From positions 812 through 64,811 of the forward strand of contig QZJN01000007.1 of assembly GCA_003599335.1 (NCBI GenBank): a stretch of 64,000 bases of DNA. Direction: 5' to 3'. The notes below the pieces were generated by a model. That model worked only from the letters and a program-made list of their open reading frames with translations. It did no database searches and was not told the origin of the DNA. Shown here one piece after another: positions 22,466-33,043 of this stretch (positions are counted from its first letter, which is position 1; every line of letters starts with the position of its first letter). Source of the stretch: Candidatus Parcubacteria bacterium. Lineage in GTDB: Bacteria; Patescibacteriota; Minisyncoccia; SURF-38. The position numbers and the translations under genes were made by a program.

Positions 22466-24055
22466 ATGGAGCTATCTCCTACAGATCTTCTCTCAAAAGG
22501 ATACTTTCCGGAGGAATTGCCACCACCATTTCAAACCGTGGTATTGGGACAAAAGTTTTCAAAATTAGAGAAACAGCTTTCAAAAGTTACCAAAAAATTT
22601 AGGCAAGCTCATGCAAAGTCGAGTTGCATAAAATACACCGCTCCAAAAAGAGGTTTTTCGAGACGCAACTTTAATATTCCAAATCCTTTCCACTTTATAG
22701 AGCTAGTTAGATTACTAAACGACAATAAAACATCGATTTTAAAAATTTTAAAATCATCAGAGTATTCTATTTTTCTAAAAGAAAGGCTTAGGAATGACTG
22801 GAACGAATTTGCAAAGGATAGATTTGTAAAATCACAAGACTACATTTATGAGTTGAAAACTGATATAGCTCGTTACTTTCCAACCATTTATACTCATAGT
22901 ATTTCTTGGGCTATTCACGGTAAAAAAATTGCGAAGTCTAACAAAAGTAACCCGAGCCTCTGGGGCAATGAACTAGATAAAAAGGTAAGAAACCTGCAGG
23001 ATAATCAAACCATAGGAATCCCCGTTGGCCCTCATGTTTCTAGAATAATTGCAGAGTTAATAGGTTGCGAGGTAGATAAAAAGTTGAAAGAGTGGATACT
23101 TAAAGAAAATCTCGATGTTCTTGTTTTTAGATATATTGATGACTACTTTTTATACTTTTCAGAAGAAAGTACAGGAGAAAAAATCTTAAACTCGCTTCAA
23201 TCAATTTTAGACGATTTTAACCTAGAAATTAATCACAATAAAACTGAGGTAACAAAATTTCCCTTTGGTCTAGAGCCTAAATGGGTCAGCGACTTAAGAT
23301 CATTTACCATACGCAAAAAGAACCCCGAACAAATATTCGATATCATGGATTTTTTTAGCATAGCTCTTAACTACACTAACGAACACAAAAATGAATCTAT
23401 CCTAAAATATTCTCTAATAAAACTTCGTAATACAAAAATAATTGATCGAAACTGGGATTACTTCGAAGCTTGGCTACTAAAAATTCTTTTGTATAATACC
23501 AATGTTCTGCCAGAAATACTTAGTTTATTCTTATTAAACCAAGGTAAACTAAACGCAGATAGAATAAAGCAAGCAATTGAAAAACTAATTGTAACAAGCA
23601 TCAAAAAGAAAAATAACTACGAAATCGCTTGGAGTCTCTGGATTGCTAAATCTCTAAAGATTAAATTATCTAGTCAATTAGTTAGTGGGGTGTTTCAATT
23701 AGAAGATCCGATTTCAATTTTAATTGCATTAGATTTAATCAATTCTAATCTAATTATCGGAACCACTAAAAAATATCTCAATTCTTTAGGAAATTCTTTA
23801 AGTCAAAATTCTCTTTTTAACGAATACTGGCTACTAGCTTACGAAAGTAGCATTAAAGGATGGCTAAAAATACCAAAATTAAATTTGCAGAACGACGAAT
23901 TTTATAAAACTCTATACAAAGAAAAAGTGAGTTTCTATGACAGCAAAAAACAAATTTACTATGCTCCTTACAGCAGACGAAAAAAAAGAACTGCTAAGGA
24001 AAAGAATAATTTTATTGGTTTTACCCGCATATTTAAACGTCCATCTTTTTATTGA
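22466..24055 (+). CDS. stand-alone reverse transcriptase, AbiK/Abi-P2-like (abortive-infection class)
   Basis: RT motifs: APKRGFSRRNFNIPNP (motifs 1/2), DIARYFPTIYTHSISWAIHGK (A), GIPVGPHVSRIIAELI (B') and VFRYIDDYFLYF (C, YIDD). NLEINHNKTEV follows as motif D. A C-terminal helical extension of about 250 aa follows. No maturase or endonuclease domain. Confidence 0.75.
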   Translation: MELSPTDLLSKGYFPEELPPPFQTVVLGQKFSKLEKQLSKVTKKFRQAHAKSSCIKYTAPKRGFSRRNFNIPNPFHFIELVRLLNDNKTSILKILKSSEYSIFLKERLRNDWNEFAKDRFVKSQDYIYELKTDIARYFPTIYTHSISWAIHGKKIAKSNKSNPSLWGNELDKKVRNLQDNQTIGIPVGPHVSRIIAELIGCEVDKKLKEWILKENLDVLVFRYIDDYFLYFSEESTGEKILNSLQSILDDFNLEINHNKTEVTKFPFGLEPKWVSDLRSFTIRKKNPEQIFDIMDFFSIALNYTNEHKNESILKYSLIKLRNTKIIDRNWDYFEAWLLKILLYNTNVLPEILSLFLLNQGKLNADRIKQAIEKLIVTSIKKKNNYEIAWSLWIAKSLKIKLSSQLVSGVFQLEDPISILIALDLINSNLIIGTTKKYLNSLGNSLSQNSLFNEYWLLAYESSIKGWLKIPKLNLQNDEFYKTLYKEKVSFYDSKKQIYYAPYSRRKKRTAKEKNNFIGFTRIFKRPSFY

Positions 24056-24099: not shown

Positions 24100-24465
24100 A
24101 TGATCTCCACACGCATACTTATTTTTCACACGACACTCCTTATTGGTTTTATAACTGCCTCTGTGGCTTCGTCTGTTATAACAATGGTTTTTCCAGAACT
24201 TTTGCCCGGGAAATATCTTTTGTTTGGCGTGATCCTGCTAACCGGGCTTATCCTTGGTTCCTGGTCATTATTTCGCGGATGCCCTTTCACTGTGTGGGAA
24301 AATAAATATCGCGAACGCGAACGCCCCGGCTCGGCGTATCGCGGCCCCTGCATTGATAGATATATAAAAGAATGGTTCAACGTCCGCCTGCCCGCGCGAT
24401 TGAGCACATTTATACTTCTTGGCTTTCTCATCTTCCCCGCCATAACCGGCCTACTCAATTGGTAA
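24100..24465 (+). CDS. small membrane protein, DUF2784-like
   Basis: Three TM helices with a GCPFTVWEN...R motif. GC is intermediate between the host and the island. Confidence 0.4.
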   Translation: MISTRILIFHTTLLIGFITASVASSVITMVFPELLPGKYLLFGVILLTGLILGSWSLFRGCPFTVWENKYRERERPGSAYRGPCIDRYIKEWFNVRLPARLSTFILLGFLIFPAITGLLNW

Positions 24466-24528
24466 AACACATTCTCCCTCCAAAACAAAAAGCTAAAGCC
24501 CACCAACAACCTCTCAACAACATCGTAT

Positions 24529-24544
24529 GTTAACAATTGTTAAC
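24529..24544. promoter_or_regulatory. perfect 16-bp palindrome GTTAACAATTGTTAAC (copy 3)
   Basis: Exact third copy, at the left edge of the high-GC island. Confidence 0.5.
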
Positions 24545-24641
24545 GTAAGTTTTTTATTCAGGTTTTACTTTTTGTCTCTCCTCCCTCAAAACTCCCCTTT
24601 CATCTCGCCGCAATTTCAACAAAGACTGACAAAAACAAAAA

Positions 24642-24672
24642 GAGCCAATCCCTTTCGGAACTGGCTCTTTGT
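24642..24672 (-). terminator. rho-independent terminator hairpin
   Basis: AGAGCCA...TGGCTCT stem, with T-runs on the minus strand and a weaker T-run on the plus strand. Lies directly 3' of the minus-strand island gene. Confidence 0.5.
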
Positions 24673-24693
24673 TTGAAAGACCGATGTTGGAAA

Positions 24694-25779
24694 CTAGTTG
24701 GCGCCGGCCGCGGCTGCAGCCTGGTCCATTGTTTCTTCCGGAGTTTCCGAAAGATCCAAGGGCGGTGCAGTTTCGTTCGGCCGGAGACGCCGCGTGCGCT
24801 TGCCGGAGTTGACGTGATTCAGCAGCATTTGGTAAAGGATCTCACGCGCCTTGCCACTGGCCGAAGCCAGATTGACAATGTACGGATCGGTTACCGGGAA
24901 GAGCTTGATCTTGCGGATCAAATCCCTCTCCACAAAAAACCGCTTATCACGCCAGAAATCCTGGTGCCTCGAGAACAACGTTGCTAGGCAGATCAGGAAG
25001 GTGTTGCGCAGGTACGCGGCGCCTTCGCGAATCGTCACAATGCGGATACCCCAGCACTGATCGAGTATGTCAGAGAAGGTTCGTGCGTTCTCGCGCAGAA
25101 CATTCGGGCCTGTAACCTCCATGATTTTCTGGAGGCCACGAGCCAACTCGTCAGTTTTGCTCCCGCGGCCAGGGCCAAGGTGAGAGTGCAGCGCGCCAAC
25201 CGCCTTACAGAAAGTCAAGGCAGTGATCAACTCGCCGTGCTTCATCCGCTGGCTCCAGGAAATCTTGCCGTGCATGACGAACCCGCGATCGCGAGTCGTC
25301 AAGCTGAACAAGTGAGAGACAACAGGGAACTCGTGCTGGAGATTGCGGAGCAGAATGTTGGGAGAAAGCTTTGTCCGCTCGGTGTTGAGGATGCGGAAAC
25401 GGTCCCGTTCCCACTCCTCGGTTGTATTGAAATGAACCGTGCAGCCCAGGCGTGGCGACTTGCCAGTACCCAGCTGCATCAGACGCATCGCCGCGGTCAC
25501 CCGCTGCAGACCGTCGATGATGAAAACATCGTTCTTGAGGTAGAAAGCCCCGTCGCGCTCCATAAAATCCCCTCCCCGCATCCCAAGTTCAATGTCGGGA
25601 ACGGTGCTCTTTTGGAACGCTTCGATGAGCGTGTTGATTTTGGCCAACGGCAGAACCTCGCGCTGATAGGGAGCAGTCTGCAATTGGTGCAACGAACCCG
25701 GGTCAACCTCACCTCGGAGAATAATGTCTTTCTTCTCCTCGCTGAGAGCAGCCCGTACTACCTTAACTGAATCGCGCAT
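24694..25779 (-). CDS. ParB/Srx-fold protein with DGQHR/DUF262-like motif (IIDGLQRVTA)
   Basis: 361 aa, GC-rich codon usage. IIDGLQRV resembles the DndB DGQHR and DUF262 DGQQR(LTT) ParB-like motifs. The SD (AAGGAGG) sits 11 nt upstream. Confidence 0.4.
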   Translation of the reverse strand: MRDSVKVVRAALSEEKKDIILRGEVDPGSLHQLQTAPYQREVLPLAKINTLIEAFQKSTVPDIELGMRGGDFMERDGAFYLKNDVFIIDGLQRVTAAMRLMQLGTGKSPRLGCTVHFNTTEEWERDRFRILNTERTKLSPNILLRNLQHEFPVVSHLFSLTTRDRGFVMHGKISWSQRMKHGELITALTFCKAVGALHSHLGPGRGSKTDELARGLQKIMEVTGPNVLRENARTFSDILDQCWGIRIVTIREGAAYLRNTFLICLATLFSRHQDFWRDKRFFVERDLIRKIKLFPVTDPYIVNLASASGKAREILYQMLLNHVNSGKRTRRLRPNETAPPLDLSETPEETMDQAAAAAGAN

Positions 25780-25877
25780 AAAGCGACGATCCTCCTTGTG
25801 AAGATTGGCTTTGACTCCCTTATGCCATATTGGCTGGGATGGTAAGCCAATTTTTTTATATCAAACAAAAACTAAAG

Positions 25878-25911
25878 TGTCAAGCAATTTTCTGTCTCCC
25901 GTGGCTTGACA
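25878..25911 (+). promoter_or_regulatory. inverted repeat TGTCAAGC-N18-GCTTGACA overlapping a TTGACA -35 hexamer
   Basis: Exact 8-bp inverted repeat in the divergent promoter region between the DGQHR-like gene and the three-ORF unit. Confidence 0.35.
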
Positions 25912-25959
25912 GAATTATATTTTTATACAATAATCTTTCCAGACTTTAAGGAGGTACAC

Positions 25960-26295
25960 ATGGAGGAAAAGCTCTTTTTGCTCAAGAAGAAACACAAACA
26001 CGAACTGGCGGCCGTTCCCGGAGGAGACCACCCAACCTTTGATTCCGACGAGTTCGTTGTCGGCACATCTCCCGAAGAAGTGATCGATCGGATTTTCAAT
26101 GAGGAGAAAGCCAAACGCGACGAGTGGGAACGCAAGATGGAAACCGCGGAAACCCAGGATGTTGTAGATGACCCCATCGGAACTTTTCCGCCGGTTCTCC
26201 CCGTGCGCAAAGAAGAATGGAAGGCCGAGGAAGTGAAAGTTGATGGCTACACCATCATCCTGGAAAAACAACCCGAACCCTCTCCTGCGACCTGA
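25960..26295 (+). CDS. hypothetical acidic protein (111 aa)
   Basis: Strong SD (AAGGAGG) 7 nt before the ATG. GC-rich codons. No recognisable motif. Confidence 0.45.
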   Translation: MEEKLFLLKKKHKHELAAVPGGDHPTFDSDEFVVGTSPEEVIDRIFNEEKAKRDEWERKMETAETQDVVDDPIGTFPPVLPVRKEEWKAEEVKVDGYTIILEKQPEPSPAT

Positions 26296-26326
26296 TTTAA
26301 ATCGCTCTCTGAATCTGGAGGAAACC

Positions 26327-26545
26327 ATGGAAAATCGCCAGGTTGTTTTTGTGGAAGCGATTATCAAAGACGAAGAACTCAAAGCTGGCCAAAACCCGCG
26401 CATTCGGCCAAACGAACTTCTGGAACGTGGCCTTGAAGCTCGCCGCGCCGAGGGATGGTGCGATGTTTTTGCCCTTCCCTTGCCCACGCCCGATGGTGGC
26501 CAAAAATGGGCCATCGTTTTCCACCGCCATAACCATCTTCACTAG
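26327..26545 (+). CDS. hypothetical small protein (72 aa)
   Basis: GGAGG SD upstream. Same transcription unit as the preceding ORF. Confidence 0.4.
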   Translation: MENRQVVFVEAIIKDEELKAGQNPRIRPNELLERGLEARRAEGWCDVFALPLPTPDGGQKWAIVFHRHNHLH

Positions 26546-26642
26546 CCTTCGCAGAAAAGCTCAAAGCTTAGTACGCGAGGGCTTTTCTGTTTATTGACAG
26601 GATAACACTTATATGTTAATTAAGTTTTATACAGGAGGTGTC

Positions 26643-26936
26643 ATGTTTCAGTTCTTCAAAGACTGGCGACGCAGGTGGCGGGAGAAAAAGCGGCGACGGC
26701 TTTTGGACGAACTTGCGTGGGTGGAAAGTCAAATCTCCAGCATCACGCAGGAAAACGCCCAAACCAAAAAGCTCCATACGCGCCTGGCCGAGGAAAGCGC
26801 CGTGGTTTTTGACCAGGAGAGAGACTCTCGTTTTGCGGCTCGTTCAAGCGAGCGCGCCCAGAATGCAATCCTCCTTGGCCGGTACCAACGCGAAAAAAAG
26901 CTCATTGAGCGAGAGCTCGCTTCCCTCCCCGCCTAA
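26643..26936 (+). CDS. hypothetical basic/coiled-coil protein (97 aa)
   Basis: AGGAGGTG SD. Arg/Lys-rich N-terminus followed by a heptad-like helical region. Confidence 0.45.
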   Translation: MFQFFKDWRRRWREKKRRRLLDELAWVESQISSITQENAQTKKLHTRLAEESAVVFDQERDSRFAARSSERAQNAILLGRYQREKKLIERELASLPA

Positions 26937-26951
26937 AGCACAGCAGCAAAA

Positions 26952-26993
26952 GGCCCGGACCGATCTAACCAATCGCGCCGGGCCTTTTCTTTT
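26952..26993 (+). terminator. terminator-like hairpin GGCCCGG...CCGGGCC followed by TTTTCTTTTCTT (repeat copy A)
   Basis: 7-bp GC stem with a long loop and a T-run. Closely related to the copy at 28004-28046. Confidence 0.45.
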
Positions 26994-26994
26994 C

Positions 26995-27023
26995 TTGACA
27001 TAAGTAAATTATCATTTTATTAT
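26995..27023 (+). promoter_or_regulatory. sigma70-type promoter (TTGACA, 17-nt spacer, TATTAT)
   Basis: Near-consensus hexamers 42 nt upstream of the PyrD-like gene start. Confidence 0.45.
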
Positions 27024-27064
27024 CGCAACATCCTGAAAGACGGGAAAACTACAAGGAGGAGACG

Positions 27065-27988
27065 ATGGAGATCCCATCGGCAAAGTTCGGAGCTCTTGAA
27101 TACACGCCAGCTCTTTCCAACGGCGCAGGAATGATCAAAAAGCTTGAGGATGTGCGGGAAATGGCCCTCTCGGCCGCCGGCGCCATCGTCGTCGGCTCCA
27201 TCACCCTCAAGGACAGGCCTGGCAACACAGGCAACACGTTTTGGGTCGGCCAAACCGGCTCAATCAACTCGCTTGGCATCCCCAACCCCGGCAAGGAATA
27301 CTACCGGCAAAACATCCATTTGATGGTTGGTGTCGCCCATGCTCATGGCAAGAAACTCATCGTCAACGTGGCCGGCTTCCAACCAAACGAATTTGGCGAA
27401 CTGGCCCTCTTGGCCTTTGATTGCGGGGCCGACGCGGTTGAGCTCAACTTCGGCTGCCCCAACATCTGGGACGATGGCACCCAAAAAGGCATTATCAGCT
27501 TTTACCCGGATGTTCTGGGCGAATCGCTGGAAGCCGTGAGACGAGCCGTTGGCGTTGGCTCCAACATCATCGCTAAGGTTTCCCCTTTTTCCAACCCAAT
27601 ACAACTCAAGGAAATCGGCGGCGTGATCGTGAGCTCAGGAATCGTTTCGGCCATTACGGCCATCAACACCTTCCCCAACGCTTACGGCGAGTACGAAAAC
27701 GGCCGGCCGGTCATTGATCCGGGCGGAGGACTTGGCGGCTTTGCCGGCGCCGGGCTCAAACACATTGCCCTTGGTCAAGTGAAGCAGTGGCGCGCCCTGC
27801 TGCCTCCCGAAATTGCCATCATTGGGGTTGGCGGTATTTCCAGGGGCAAGGACATGGCCGAGTATTTCCGTCATGGCAAGGTTGCGGCCGTTCAGGTCGT
27901 TACGGCGCTTTTGCGCAAGGGCCACATGGACCCCAACGCCTTGAGCACCATTCTCATGGAATACGCCGAGCTGCCGGATGCAGCGTGA
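27065..27988 (+). CDS. dihydroorotate dehydrogenase-family (PyrD-like) FMN TIM-barrel oxidoreductase
   Basis: NSLGIPNPG, ELNFGCPN and C-terminal IIGVGGISRGKDMAEYFRHGKVAAVQVVTALL match class-1 DHOD signatures. SD AAGGAGGAGAC. Confidence 0.65.
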   Translation: MEIPSAKFGALEYTPALSNGAGMIKKLEDVREMALSAAGAIVVGSITLKDRPGNTGNTFWVGQTGSINSLGIPNPGKEYYRQNIHLMVGVAHAHGKKLIVNVAGFQPNEFGELALLAFDCGADAVELNFGCPNIWDDGTQKGIISFYPDVLGESLEAVRRAVGVGSNIIAKVSPFSNPIQLKEIGGVIVSSGIVSAITAINTFPNAYGEYENGRPVIDPGGGLGGFAGAGLKHIALGQVKQWRALLPPEIAIIGVGGISRGKDMAEYFRHGKVAAVQVVTALLRKGHMDPNALSTILMEYAELPDAA

Positions 27989-28003
27989 AGTTCCACAACT
28001 AGA

Positions 28004-28046
28004 AGGCCCGGAGCCAAAATTAACTTTTGGCGCCGGGCCTTTTCTT
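28004..28046 (+). terminator. terminator-like hairpin GGCCCGG...CCGGGCC followed by TTTTCTTTTT (repeat copy B)
   Basis: Same stem, and a partly conserved loop, as the copy at 26952-26993. It marks the right edge of the GC island. Confidence 0.45.
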
Positions 28047-30628: not shown

Positions 30629-33043
30629 TTAAGACTGGGATTGTGTCTGCTGGACCGTTGAGGTTGCGGCCTGCAATTTATCCCAGATCTCACGCTCAAC
30701 AACATCTTTTGGACGACCGTATTTATTTAAAGCATACGCCCTAACCCTATCAATCCATTGAAGATCCGGTTTTGGCAAAGGAAGAGTTTTCATATTAAAC
30801 GGCTTTGAAGTCTGGCCGCCGATTATCATTTTTATATAAGCGTTGTAGTTATCAATATTTATAAGATCGTTTGAGGAAAAAACAGGCTCCATTTGTTTAG
30901 AAAGAAAATCTCCATCTTCCGGCCCAACACGAAAGGCGACGATCGTGCCAACGTTGCCAAAAACGGCATCGCGAATGTTTTGCGGAAGTTGAGCTATGAA
31001 TTGATGCGCAACAGTGAGGCTTAAACGATATTTTCTTGCTTCGGATAAGATTGAGGCAAAAGAATCGGTTGTAAAATTCTGAAACTCATCGACATAAAGG
31101 TAAAAATCCCTTCTCAAGGATTCAGGAATGTCTCCCCTGCCAAGGGCAGCCATCTGCAGCTTTGAAACCAAAATCAAACCAAGCAAGTGGCTGTTTACCT
31201 CGCCGATTTTCCCCTTGGAAAGATTTGCCAATAAAATTTTCCCCTTGTCCATAATATCTCTGAAATTAAATGCCGAATAAGGTTGGCCGATGATATTTCT
31301 CATGGCCGTGTTTTCAATAAACCGACCTAATTTTGAAATAAGATATCCCAACATTTCGGAACGATGAAAATCCGAAGTTTGAGCCATTTCTTTTTCCCAG
31401 AATGATCTAACCAAAGGATCGGTAACTTTCTGAAGTTTTACTTTTACAAATTCTTTGTCGGTAAAAATCCTTGGAATTTCAACTATAGTTCCGGGGCTTT
31501 CTTTTTCGGCGGCCAAAGTAAGCATGGCGTTTCGCATATTATGCTCAAACAAAGGCCCTGTCATTTCCGGTGGAAACAATTTAAGAAAAATTGCTATCAT
31601 TTCCTGAACCGCCAGATCTTTTTGATCTTCGGTCTGCCATTCAAGCATGTTTAGACCCATAGGCCGTTCGGTAAAACTTGGATCGAAATAAACGACATCA
31701 TCAAGCCTCTCTTTGGGTATATAGCTCAAAACCGTATTAACAAGCTCTCCATGAGGATCAATAACCGCCACGCCATGACCAGCTTCGATGTCTTGCTTTA
31801 TTAAAGAGCCTATAAAATTTGATTTACCGGTGCCGGTCTGACCGACTATATAAAGATGCCTTCTTCTGTCATCGGGAGACATTTTTACGAGCCTTGTTGC
31901 GCCACGATAAACATTTTCTCCAAGCACCAACCCTTCCTGGGGAAGATTAACCGGTGGCTCTGCCGGTTTAGATTTTAACCAGGCAATTTTCGGAACGCTC
32001 ATGCCGGGCGGAGGAAAATGGAACAAAGCGGCAAGCTCGGAAGCACTCAGAAACAAAGACTCCGCTTTATTGAAAAGCCTAAAAGAATAATTAAAAGTGA
32101 ATTTTTTTAAAGAAGAGCCGGAAATCCTCCTTACTTTAAACGAATTAAGCCCACTTTCTTGAAATTGGGCAAAATAATCTTCCAAATTGGCAACTATCGT
32201 TTGCGCCTGAACTTGAGTCGGGGCCGAAACTATAAGCCTAATATTAGCTTCAAAATTAACCTGACTGCCCTTTTTATTTATAAGCTGGGCGCTTTCATCG
32301 GCAACAGAGGCTACAAACCTCGGAGCTTTATCTTTTTCACTTAAAGATTTTCCGCGCAGAGCATCTTCTAAGCTTAATCCCTCTGCCAACTTCCTAACGA
32401 TCGATCTTGCTTTCTCGTTTAAGGAAGTTGCCCCTTTTCTCAAGACTATCTGATAACTTGCTCCCTCTCCCTCTTTTGCAAGCTTTGTAAAAATATTCGT
32501 CAGGCTCGGCAAAGGATCGGAGCTGAAGCGAGAAACATCCTTAACCGGCAATACTGAATCCCGCGATAAAACAATATATGAACCGGCTGTTGAACCTTGG
32601 GGATGAAAAATATTATAATCATCAATCGGCTCGACATAGGCTTCCGGATAAAGAGCCTGAATTTGTTTCGTTATGGCCTCTTCTAATTCTTCGGGTGTTG
32701 AAACATAAAATCTTATTTCCTCTCCTATGTGATGAACAGAAATTTCAAAAGCCAAAGCCGGCCATCTTAACTTTTTACTACGTTCCAAAATTCCTGCCAA
32801 AGAAGCGAAAAATTGTTCTGCCACGCCGGAATATTCCTTGAATTCAGAGGGGTGAACATTTGAACTTTGGGGTAAAGTTACCAATAGTAATTTTGTGTGC
32901 AATGCCCTAAGCGTCTGATTTTTTGACTCCCAACGAAGCCAAAAAAGCCAAAGAATCAAAATTAAAATTAAAAAAACAAAAAATGCGGCCGCCCCGCCTA
33001 TAAGACCGGCTTGAGAAATTTTTGCCAATAAAATCGTTTCCAT
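30629..33043 (-). CDS. TraD/VirD4-like type IV secretion coupling ATPase (AAA-like, DUF87-type)
   Basis: 804 aa. N-terminal TM helix, Walker A LYIVGQTGTGKSNF and Walker B LYVDEFQNF. Domain organisation resembles T4SS DNA-transfer coupling proteins. Confidence 0.5.
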   Translation of the reverse strand: METILLAKISQAGLIGGAAAFFVFLILILILWLFWLRWESKNQTLRALHTKLLLVTLPQSSNVHPSEFKEYSGVAEQFFASLAGILERSKKLRWPALAFEISVHHIGEEIRFYVSTPEELEEAITKQIQALYPEAYVEPIDDYNIFHPQGSTAGSYIVLSRDSVLPVKDVSRFSSDPLPSLTNIFTKLAKEGEGASYQIVLRKGATSLNEKARSIVRKLAEGLSLEDALRGKSLSEKDKAPRFVASVADESAQLINKKGSQVNFEANIRLIVSAPTQVQAQTIVANLEDYFAQFQESGLNSFKVRRISGSSLKKFTFNYSFRLFNKAESLFLSASELAALFHFPPPGMSVPKIAWLKSKPAEPPVNLPQEGLVLGENVYRGATRLVKMSPDDRRRHLYIVGQTGTGKSNFIGSLIKQDIEAGHGVAVIDPHGELVNTVLSYIPKERLDDVVYFDPSFTERPMGLNMLEWQTEDQKDLAVQEMIAIFLKLFPPEMTGPLFEHNMRNAMLTLAAEKESPGTIVEIPRIFTDKEFVKVKLQKVTDPLVRSFWEKEMAQTSDFHRSEMLGYLISKLGRFIENTAMRNIIGQPYSAFNFRDIMDKGKILLANLSKGKIGEVNSHLLGLILVSKLQMAALGRGDIPESLRRDFYLYVDEFQNFTTDSFASILSEARKYRLSLTVAHQFIAQLPQNIRDAVFGNVGTIVAFRVGPEDGDFLSKQMEPVFSSNDLINIDNYNAYIKMIIGGQTSKPFNMKTLPLPKPDLQWIDRVRAYALNKYGRPKDVVEREIWDKLQAATSTVQQTQSQS

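Follow-up and report, generated by a model that had tools for sequence, protein, structure and literature searches.

A stand-alone ParB-fold protein family of uncultivated phages and Candidate Phyla Radiation bacteria, with a covarying leader hairpin in the Candidate Phyla Radiation copies

DGQHR domains are defined by a QR pair, the DGQHR pentapeptide and an FxxxN motif (PMC4619093). DndB has such a domain and forms a homodimer, which regulates its own gene and binds to palindromes in the promoter of that gene (PMC4507180). Another homodimer, DpdB, is a DGQQR ATPase that DNA stimulates; its helical C-terminal domains have been modelled around double-stranded DNA, and it has neither an EHxxP motif nor nuclease activity (PMC10164549). 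DndB-like proteins bind ATP or GTP (PMC12704722), and some ParB-fold domains can act as nucleases on their own, namely Osa, AtSrx and a ParB-like nuclease of P. furiosus (PMC4619093). Here, we compare these systems with a gene found in a stretch of 64,000 nucleotides from a Candidatus Parcubacteria bacterium (contig QZJN01000007.1; hereafter the window). The gene is a minus-strand open reading frame (ORF) of 361 aa at exactly 24694–25779, and its product is identical to the NCBI 'hypothetical protein' C4553_01775, by which name we refer to it. A preliminary description made from the sequence had called it a DGQHR/DUF262-like ParB-fold protein and the first gene of an island that may be a composite defence locus. 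We found that C4553_01775 belongs to an undescribed, compact, stand-alone protein family common to uncultivated phages and Candidate Phyla Radiation (CPR) bacteria. We tentatively favour the reading that it is a non-nucleolytic, nucleoside triphosphate (NTP)-gated DNA-binding switch or clamp of the DndB/DpdB type.

We modelled the protein with AlphaFold2 (predicted local distance difference test score, pLDDT, 89.3; predicted template modelling score, pTM, 0.80). When the model was compared with the PDB using Foldseek, the top 13 matches were all ParB (with CTP or CDP), Noc, PadC or the N-terminal domain of pNOB8 ParB (probability 0.91–1.0, E ~1e-3), and BrxU and SspE appeared as weak matches. 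In a viral structure library, we found 41 matches at E ≤ 1e-3. The best full-length viral superpositions had template modelling (TM) scores of 0.45–0.58 over 330–410 aligned columns, and these matches are stand-alone proteins of 250–370 aa that are annotated as sulfur-modification (DndB-like), GmrSD-N-domain-only, putative nuclease or occlusion proteins. The modelled fold thus places C4553_01775 in the ParB/Srx superfamily, as a divergent, unannotated family of its DGQHR/DUF262 branch.

To count motifs across the family, we used an alignment of 45 homologues that are 47–68% identical. Q39, R40, D89, Q92, R93, F128 and N132 are present in all 45 members, G90 in 44 and L91 in 43. The ORF and the IIDGLQRVTA motif that the preliminary description had picked out are real, and the motif is no chance match, since D89, Q92 and R93 are invariant. 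All three motifs of DGQHR domains are kept; however, the third position of the pentapeptide is Leu in place of Gln. From the motif register, Leu91 would occupy the position of the catalytic Glu of ParB and of the Gln of DGQQR/DGQHR proteins. The segment FRILNTERTKLSPN (residues 128–141) resembles ParB box III, N..R..L(N/S)P. Taking the roles of ParB residues from PMC13229309, we found that the putative equivalents of the phosphate-binding Arg and Asn residues are conserved as R40, R93 and N132.

Profile searches gave the same placement, at scores under the curated cut-offs. The window protein matches NCBIfam TIGR03187 (DGQHR) at E = 0.0026 and 17.6 bits (cut-off 58.85) and Pfam GmrSD_N/DUF262 (PF03235) at E = 0.027 and 15 bits (cut-off 33.2). 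In the alignment, TIGR03187 matches 31 of the 45 members (best E = 3.3e-9, under the cut-off) and GmrSD_N matches 29 (best E = 1.1e-4, under threshold); the TIGR03187 match covers residues 83–204 and so reaches into the helical part of the protein. The earlier assignment to the DGQHR/DUF262 type thus stands, on ParB-fold structural matches and on these sub-threshold profiles. Matches to PF14072 (DndB; one member, E = 0.13) and to NF041060 (DpdB; two members, E ~0.1) are rare, and at E ≤ 1 C4553_01775 matched no family of PADLOC-DB 2.0.

Because its best PDB matches are CTP-binding ParB and Noc, and because phrog_1033, named 'ParB-like partition protein', matches 26 of the 45 members, the protein could be taken for a partition-type ParB of a phage-plasmid or a chromosome. 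We consider this very improbable, and membership tests largely refute it. Neither PF02195 (ParB_N) nor the ParA-interaction motif (L/F/I)G(K/R)G(L/F/I) was found in any of the 45 members, there is no recurrent ParA gene nearby, and the central helix-turn-helix (HTH) and C-terminal dimerisation domain of ParB are missing. In addition, a tblastn search of 72,556 plasmid records returned no homologue (nor did one of 50,697 GenBank phage records), and the chromosomal copies are sporadic and solitary.

The C-terminal half is a separate, all-helical domain. We modelled residues 146–346 alone and obtained a pLDDT of 92.8 and a pTM of 0.90; the last 20 aa of the protein have a family mean net charge of –4.2. 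Foldseek found no significant PDB fold match for this domain (best E = 2.7), PDB sequence searches with the protein, the family profile and a C-domain profile gave nothing meaningful, and Pfam had no match in the C-terminal half of the window protein or of the 45 members. This agrees with the preliminary description, which could name no motif in the last 200 aa. The motifs (E/D)HxxP, (ILV)(ED)H(ILV)xPQ, L(GA)NLxLLxxxN and NxxFxxKK are absent from all 45 members. The conserved H322 motif sits at the very end of the folded part, which leaves no space for a His-Me finger. HD-domain and HNH ideas that had been raised by conserved His residues were dropped, as the domain has no PDB fold match. The suggestion that the gene encodes a GmrSD-type enzyme did not survive, since the DUF1524 and SspE nuclease motifs are found in 0 of 45 members and no nuclease fold was matched.

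Compared with DndB and other DGQHR proteins (TIGR03187, PF14072), C4553_01775 has the QR pair, DGxxR, FxxxN and the ParB/Srx-type N-terminal domain, it has ~360 aa with a helical C-terminal half as in DndB, and viral orphans annotated 'DNA-sulfur modification-associated' are among its best full-length structural matches. In contrast to DndB, its pentapeptide is DGLQR, its score falls far under the cut-off, no dndCDE or sulfur-modification genes lie near its homologues, and its conserved upstream element is an asymmetric hairpin, with no palindromic operator found. Like DpdB, it would combine a stand-alone ParB-type NTPase domain with a helical C-terminal domain that lacks EHxxP, and would assist in a process on DNA without being a nuclease. 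However, the C-terminal domain of DpdB is said to be homologous to SspE, whereas that of C4553_01775 has no detectable SspE similarity, and no dpdA or TGT-like gene was seen near its homologues. The motif triad and the fold are shared with GmrS/DUF262 of GmrSD, BrxU and SspE (PF03235); the DUF1524/HNH C-terminal nuclease, the fusions and the defence neighbours of those proteins are not.

Among solved structures, the N-terminal domain is matched best by chromosomal or plasmid ParB and Noc CTPase clamps, which have counterparts of R40, R93 and N132; in contrast, C4553_01775 has Leu for the Glu of GERR and none of the PF02195 match, ParA-binding motif, central HTH and ParA partner. As a phage orphan borne on mobile elements, it resembles the orphan ParB-CTPase-fold proteins (Kaljevic et al. 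2025, PMC12704722) and the phage ParB activators of T-dioxygenases (PMC13229309), although, unlike the activators, it is linked to no dioxygenase or other modification enzyme. Among orphan ParB-fold proteins, the form that it takes in CPR bacteria, a cassette with a structured leader, has no described counterpart. By analogy, the protein probably does not act in segregation but binds NTP and regulates some DNA transaction. The survey of Kaljevic et al., which was run with PF02195 and TIGR00180, probably missed the family because these search models do not match it.

A word-indexed search found 330 relatives that are 47–68% identical over their full length, none with a recorded Pfam domain. In an exhaustive profile search of 1.84 billion representatives (clusters at 50% identity), 516 matched at E ≤ 1e-3, and 357 of these at E ≤ 1e-30. 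Members have ~340–390 aa and a single full-length match, and there is no fusion architecture among the best 150. The hosts are mostly CPR/Patescibacteria (Saccharibacteria, Parcubacteria groups and Peribacteria) together with one clade of Acidobacteriota, and viral contigs that carry the gene reach 193 and 241 kb. In a neighbour-joining tree, which is star-like, phage and CPR copies are interleaved.

To see what accompanies the gene, we compared 80 loci from species-representative genomes, 38 IMG/VR viral contigs and several metagenome contigs (single loci are denoted by L numbers). When we clustered all ORFs within ~8 kb against each other, no family generally accompanied it. In viral contigs, the setting is a recombination/replication module: the flanking genes encode exonucleases, RecT/Erf/Sak4/Gp2.5 annealing proteins, single-stranded DNA-binding protein, Holliday-junction resolvases, a Dda-like helicase, methyltransferases and HNH endonucleases. 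In an Acidobacteria prophage-type clade, a ParB_N+HTH_23 gene overlaps the gene upstream (17 loci) and a PD-(D/E)XK nuclease lies directly downstream (12 loci), followed by an AAA_24/Sak4-type ATPase and a large helicase. The prophages of this family (Bryobacterales/Solibacter; L059, L063–L075, L079, L085, L105–L110 and L122) seem to share the order serine-recombinase-like, 488-aa unknown, sigma-like, ParB_N+HTH, C4553_01775 homologue, PD-(D/E)XK, AAA_24 and large helicase, where the recombinase and sigma labels were assigned by eye.

In 13 Saccharibacteria-type loci, the gene is accompanied by an HTH-like protein of 230–300 aa, which is encoded 2–99 nt downstream in 12 of the 13 and ~1.7 kb away in L076. 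This partner belongs to an undescribed family with a weak HTH_3 match (E = 0.008) and also has an elevated G+C content at third codon positions (GC3). Its apparent status as a tandem paralogue was a clustering artefact, and the gene is of an unrelated HTH-like family.

In CPR chromosomes, the genes next to it are housekeeping genes with no relation to each other, such as murJ, lepA, proS, dnaX, aminoacyl-tRNA synthetase genes, secA and ychF. Among 120 of these neighbours, each Pfam family occurs at most twice, and no defence gene recurs. In the window itself, a full-length reverse transcriptase (RT) of the Drt4/Drt6 class, related to UG/AbiK (PADLOC Drt6 2e-158, Drt4 7e-154), ends 639 bp from C4553_01775, and a 121-aa membrane ORF with a weak DUF2784 match lies between them, much as the preliminary description had it (~640 bp and a small membrane protein). 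The GC-rich island is also there: the GC content is 47–58% over 24.1–28.0 kb against a background of ~38%, which is unique in the 64 kb. The region is variable, with a tRNA-Gln gene ~4 kb away.

These neighbours bring in the explanation that C4553_01775 is a single-gene anti-phage defence or exclusion factor, possibly working with the adjacent defence-associated RT. Its ParB-type domain would detect DNA that is foreign or modified, and the protein would go on to nick that DNA or to block it; it can be pictured as a GmrSD/SspE/BrxU enzyme cut down to its sensor half. The nearest curated families are indeed components of defence systems, some ParB-fold domains cut DNA alone (PMC4619093), the distribution in CPR bacteria is sporadic and looks horizontal, the codon usage is foreign, and the gene lies beside a genuine defence RT, in a variable region near a tRNA gene. 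However, we think a defence role unlikely. The lack of a PADLOC match, of nuclease motifs and of a nuclease fold counts against it, as do the housekeeping neighbours in CPR loci. The RT, the membrane ORF and all other neighbours in the window (the small ORFs and a gene resembling dihydroorotate dehydrogenase, DHOD) have no relative in any of the 124 loci that carry the gene, and Drt4-type RTs are described as single-gene systems. The phage copies sit in recombination/replication modules and not in accessory hot spots, and the high conservation and uniform architecture of the family are unlike those of typical arms-race proteins. Since dnd, ssp, BREX, DISARM or other partner genes do not recur near homologues, membership of a defence island, as first proposed, was not borne out. 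Of the composite locus that had also been suggested, the part that concerns origin holds: in the window, GC3 is 0.28 in the RT, 0.70 in C4553_01775 and 0.32–0.39 in host genes, and the low GC3 of the RT marks it as of another origin than C4553_01775. A functional link to the RT is without comparative support, because the two co-occur in none of the 124 loci.

We next turn to composition and mobility in CPR loci. The GC content of the gene exceeds that of its flanks by a median of 7.8 points in CPR loci, whereas viral and Acidobacteria copies match their flanks. The excess lies at synonymous sites (GC3 0.70 compared to 0.47 in neighbours; 48 CPR loci), and the gene has the highest GC3 of all nearby ORFs of at least 150 aa in 46 of 58 CPR loci. 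In 26 of the 29 clear CPR cases, both ends of the GC-rich segment lie no more than 200 nt from the ORF. The GC3 of CPR copies averages 0.73 and depends very little on host GC3 (slope 0.36, r = 0.33, n = 58), whereas that of viral copies tracks the background (slope 0.87, r = 0.75). Recent transfer from a GC-rich phage, as the sole explanation, is weakened by this weak coupling and by a CPR-specific leader (described below). As CPR copies share this leader and are 35–67% identical among themselves, not all of them have come recently from the sampled GC-rich phages. Either rapid turnover of the cassette among CPR genomes or selection on synonymous sites would account for the excess.

In 3 of 60 loci, we found perfect, locus-specific direct repeats of 36, 28 and 20 nt that bracket units of 1.25–1.5 kb. 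The units hold the gene and its upstream leader alone, and the repeats of two units take in the tail of a host terminator. The repeats resemble the traces that the recent insertion of one gene would leave if it duplicated a long target. In our best explanation, the gene travels in CPR bacteria as an autonomous unit of ~1.25 kb that has been inserted at many unrelated chromosomal sites.

A rival explanation is that the gene is a selfish single-gene mobile element, whose product would be a nickase or NTPase that promotes the insertion of its own cassette, perhaps by recognising the leader hairpin in single-stranded DNA. The one-gene extent of the foreign composition, the many unrelated insertion sites, the direct repeats with a hairpin inside the unit (in L020, within the repeat-bounded unit), the interleaving of phage and CPR copies in the phylogeny and the conserved hairpin that travels with the gene all fit it. 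Nevertheless, we hold it to be quite improbable. Terminal inverted repeats of the insertion-sequence kind have a median of 13 nt compared to 12.6 nt in shuffles, and there are no conserved element ends. Each fetched locus has one copy, and no disrupted or degraded copies were found in the loci examined. The hairpin is single and on one side of the gene, and its wobble pairs lean towards RNA. Metagenome searches for the empty L020 and L021 sites gave no matches, which is a weak test. Integration targeted to tRNA genes was also considered and set aside, as tRNA adjacency (~6 of 60 loci compared to ~3 expected) is not clearly enriched.

The leader of the window copy can be folded into a hairpin at –30.6 kcal/mol (z = –4.6), in which GGCUU-AC-CA-UCCC and GGGA-GU-CA-AAGCC enclose a loop with a mini-hairpin. 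The general element is GGnTn-GC-(U/C)A-UCCC-loop-GGGA-GC-UA-nAnCC and lies 20–60 nt before the start codon. Across 22 instances, 92.9% of cells are paired compared to 75.8% in shuffled sequences, both partners vary in 10 of the 11 pairs, and compensatory cells number 41 where 11.7 are expected (0 of 500 shuffles). A further count gave 93% paired cells compared to 77% in shuffles, and 45 compensatory cells where 12.9 are expected, again with 0 of 500 shuffles. Sliding controls lower the paired cells to 21–57%. Because these 22 seeds were hand-picked by eye, the positional test is the stronger one: when we searched a covariance model built from them over 1.18 Mb of chromosomal loci on both strands (E ≤ 1), 25 of its 26 matches lay directly upstream of the gene on the sense strand, and the off-target one had E = 0.23. 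Matches that were not seeds include those in the window, L013, L078 and L080. In 0.56 Mb of viral loci, the model had no match near the gene; the hairpin is specific to the CPR chromosomal copies. None of the 4227 Rfam covariance models matched the leader within 24400–26100, even at E ≤ 10.

Within the hairpin, G·U pairs outnumber A·C pairs by 9 to 4. This leans towards a structure in sense-strand RNA over one in DNA but is not decisive. The hairpin is most likely a cis-regulatory RNA element, which could act as an autoregulatory operator or as a 5' stabiliser. In another CPR clade (L019, L021, L022, L025, L027, L028, L030, L037, L043, L044 and L060), we saw by eye an apparent second type of conserved leader ~60–100 nt upstream of the gene, of the form …CATAAG-GCGC…GCGC-ACTGCT…CCCAACC-AGGAG. 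A recurrent 8-mer, CCCAGCCA, was rejected as clade redundancy.

The other expression signals, as predicted in the window, complete a monocistronic unit of ~1.25 kb (25883 to ~24629). Transcription is predicted to start close to the base of the hairpin, and a terminator begins 24 nt past the stop codon. The promoter-like site was read from the sequence; our promoter scan omits it because that scan accepts a –10 box only if its position 6 is T. In the literature that we searched, neither this leader hairpin nor the behaviour of the gene as a one-gene cassette has been described.

The leader also bears on the explanation that the protein is a DndB-style transcription factor, whose sole role would be to repress its own or neighbouring genes through a DNA operator. 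Such autoregulation is known for DndB, the gene has its own promoter and a conserved leader, and two lineages of the family have HTH partners. However, what is conserved is not a palindrome in double-stranded DNA but an asymmetric hairpin with wobble pairs and a bulge, the upstream regions share no palindrome, and the CPR loci have no conserved downstream operon; an autoregulator without a target gene would have no obvious reason to persist. We therefore regard this explanation as rather unlikely.

The switch or clamp reading draws on the intact pocket motifs, the basic helical domain, the lack of a nuclease signature, the linkage to phage recombination and replication, and the HTH partners in two lineages. 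In this mechanism, the ParB-type domain would bind nucleotide and the protein would be homodimeric, as in DndB and DpdB; nucleotide binding would then gate the binding or encirclement of DNA by the helical domains, without cutting. Its native setting would be the early recombination/replication module of uncultivated phages, where the phage or prophage HTH protein that is often coupled to it could supply sequence specificity. In CPR bacteria, it would form an autonomous unit with its own promoter, structured leader, ribosome-binding site and terminator; the hairpin would act as a cis-regulatory RNA, and the unit may be of benefit to the host.

Several points weigh against this mechanism. The matches to curated models all fall under their cut-offs. 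With Leu91 in place of the catalytic Glu or Gln, NTP hydrolysis and even NTP binding may differ, and the NTP-binding and hydrolysis mutants of phage ParB176 were not markedly impaired (PMC13229309). Since nucleases with a ParB fold exist (PMC4619093), the non-nucleolytic character of C4553_01775 remains a prediction. The supposed likeness of the modelled C-terminal domain to those of DndB and DpdB comes from viral models that are not solved structures, at TM scores of ~0.5. No shared palindromic operator was found in the upstream regions across the family, and an HTH partner is lacking in the window copy and in the two relatives closest to it (67% identity). The lasting GC3 excess of CPR copies is not accounted for by simple recent transfer. 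Finally, NTP binding, dimerisation and DNA binding are all predicted by analogy.

A further possibility, to which we assign little weight, is that the protein and its leader hairpin together make up an autonomous one-gene CPR element, in which the ParB-fold NTPase recognises its own hairpin in mRNA or in single-stranded DNA. If so, recognition would give tight translational control of a potentially toxic DNA-binding protein, or would serve the insertion of the 1.25-kb cassette with target duplications of 20–36 nt, and the uniform, host-independent GC3 of ~0.7 would reflect a nomadic life among CPR genomes and their phages.

Table 1. Coordinates of C4553_01775, its parts and signals, neighbouring features of the window, and features of homologue loci (L numbers; positions within each locus).
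Feature	Position	Strand	Basis
ORF of stand-alone DGQHR/DUF262-type ParB/Srx-fold protein (C4553_01775)	24694–25779	-	ORF call, homologues, AlphaFold2, profiles
Predicted beta-hairpin ahead of core, residues 5–25	25705–25767	-	AlphaFold2 model
Predicted ParB/Srx-type nucleotide-binding core, residues 27–145	25345–25701	-	AlphaFold2, Foldseek (ParB, Noc, PadC), profiles
Matches to phrog_1033 (residues 46–143) and GmrSD_N (residues 38–138)		-	Within N-terminal half
YQRE, residues 38–41, 'QR pair' of DGQHR domains	25657–25668	-	Q39, R40 invariant
IIDGLQRVTA, residues 87–96	25492–25521	-	DGLQR is counterpart of DGQHR, DGQQR and ParB GERR
FRILNTERTKLSPN, residues 128–141, FxxxN motif	25357–25398	-	F128, N132 invariant; R135 in 41/45
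Predicted all-helical C-terminal domain, residues 146–346, net charge about +9 to +11	24742–25344	-	Domain-only AlphaFold2
Invariant H322-x-N-S-G-K-R..RL motif at end of folded part	24784–24816	-	Family alignment
Acidic disordered tail, residues 347–361	24697–24741	-	AlphaFold2; charge
Two-stem hairpin in 5' leader	25807–25848	-	Covariance model R1, E = 0.003; window not a seed
Promoter-like site: TTGACA (25883–25878), 17-nt spacer, TATAAA (25860–25855)	25855–25883	-	Read from sequence
Shine-Dalgarno AAGGAGG, 11 nt before ATG	25791–25797	-	Read from sequence
Intrinsic terminator	24629–24670	-	14-bp stem (24670–24639; 6 G-C pairs), GAAA loop, T-rich tail
RT of Drt4/Drt6 class	22466–24055	+	PADLOC
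121-aa membrane ORF	24100–24465
Rest of GC-rich island (small ORFs and DHOD-like gene)	25780–28000
Divergent near-consensus promoter: TTGACA, 17 nt, AATAAT	25906–25934	+
DHOD-like gene	27065–27988
Terminator hairpins 3' of orf107 and of DHOD-like gene	26948–26988; 28003–28041
TraD/VirD4-like ATPase	30629–33043	-
HTH-like partner	L026 9013–9789; L032 9080–9982; L036 9089–9865; L038 7035–7775
HTH-like partner	L042 9050–9742; L056 9050–9889; L058 9047–9742; L080 9014–9745; others
Direct repeats, 36 nt	L020 6718–6753 and 8233–8268
Direct repeats, 28 nt	L052 3303–3330 and 4634–4661
Direct repeats, 20 nt	L021 647–666 and 1916–1935
Leader hairpin in other loci	L007 7951–7978; L008 4442–4472; L045 7935–7966; 20 more loci

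Around C4553_01775, the window holds several other features (Table 1). The GC3 of the RT is below that of the host, and the RT is likely also foreign, from another source than C4553_01775. Elsewhere in the GC-rich island are two or three small ORFs (C4553_01780–01790) without a family match and a DHOD-like class-1 flavoenzyme with a GC3 of 0.69, which scores under the PyrD cut-offs and has relatives in several CPR lineages and in Terriglobia; no gene of this part is linked to C4553_01775 at homologue loci. The near-identical terminator hairpins that follow orf107 and the DHOD-like gene (AAGGCCCGG…CCGGGCCTTTT) suggest a common origin or a common host terminator type. The divergent promoter overlaps the listed TTG start of a 129-aa ORF, whose true start is probably a downstream ATG (MEEKLF…). 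A TraD/VirD4-like ATPase gene lies within ~5 kb of C4553_01775 in the window, and at a like distance from the homologue in four to six other CPR loci (L025, L032, L045 and L058, with L014 and L030 by clustering); dnaX adjoins it in L125 and L048 and is ~4 kb away in the window. Conserved synteny with either gene was rejected, as the loci are few and the arrangements differ, and the proximity is probably coincidence or loose regional synteny. Rather than an assembled system, the stretch from dnaX and tRNA-Gln to 28.0 kb is best regarded as a variable region in which unrelated foreign genes have gathered.

It is now clear that mobile elements carry many orphan ParB-fold proteins, almost none of which has a known role. 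The family that we describe is large (~500 clusters at 50% identity) and highly conserved, and it is unseen by Pfam, by PADLOC and by surveys based on PF02195. For annotation, it teaches that a DGxQR motif beside a defence RT does not make a defence system. Its covarying leader motif, previously undescribed, offers a direct experimental handle on the protein, and the foreign synonymous composition of a single ORF, together with perfect flanking repeats, is an unusually clean signature of single-gene mobility. The family also ties uncultivated phages to CPR bacteria, which have tiny genomes and a gene flow of which little is understood.

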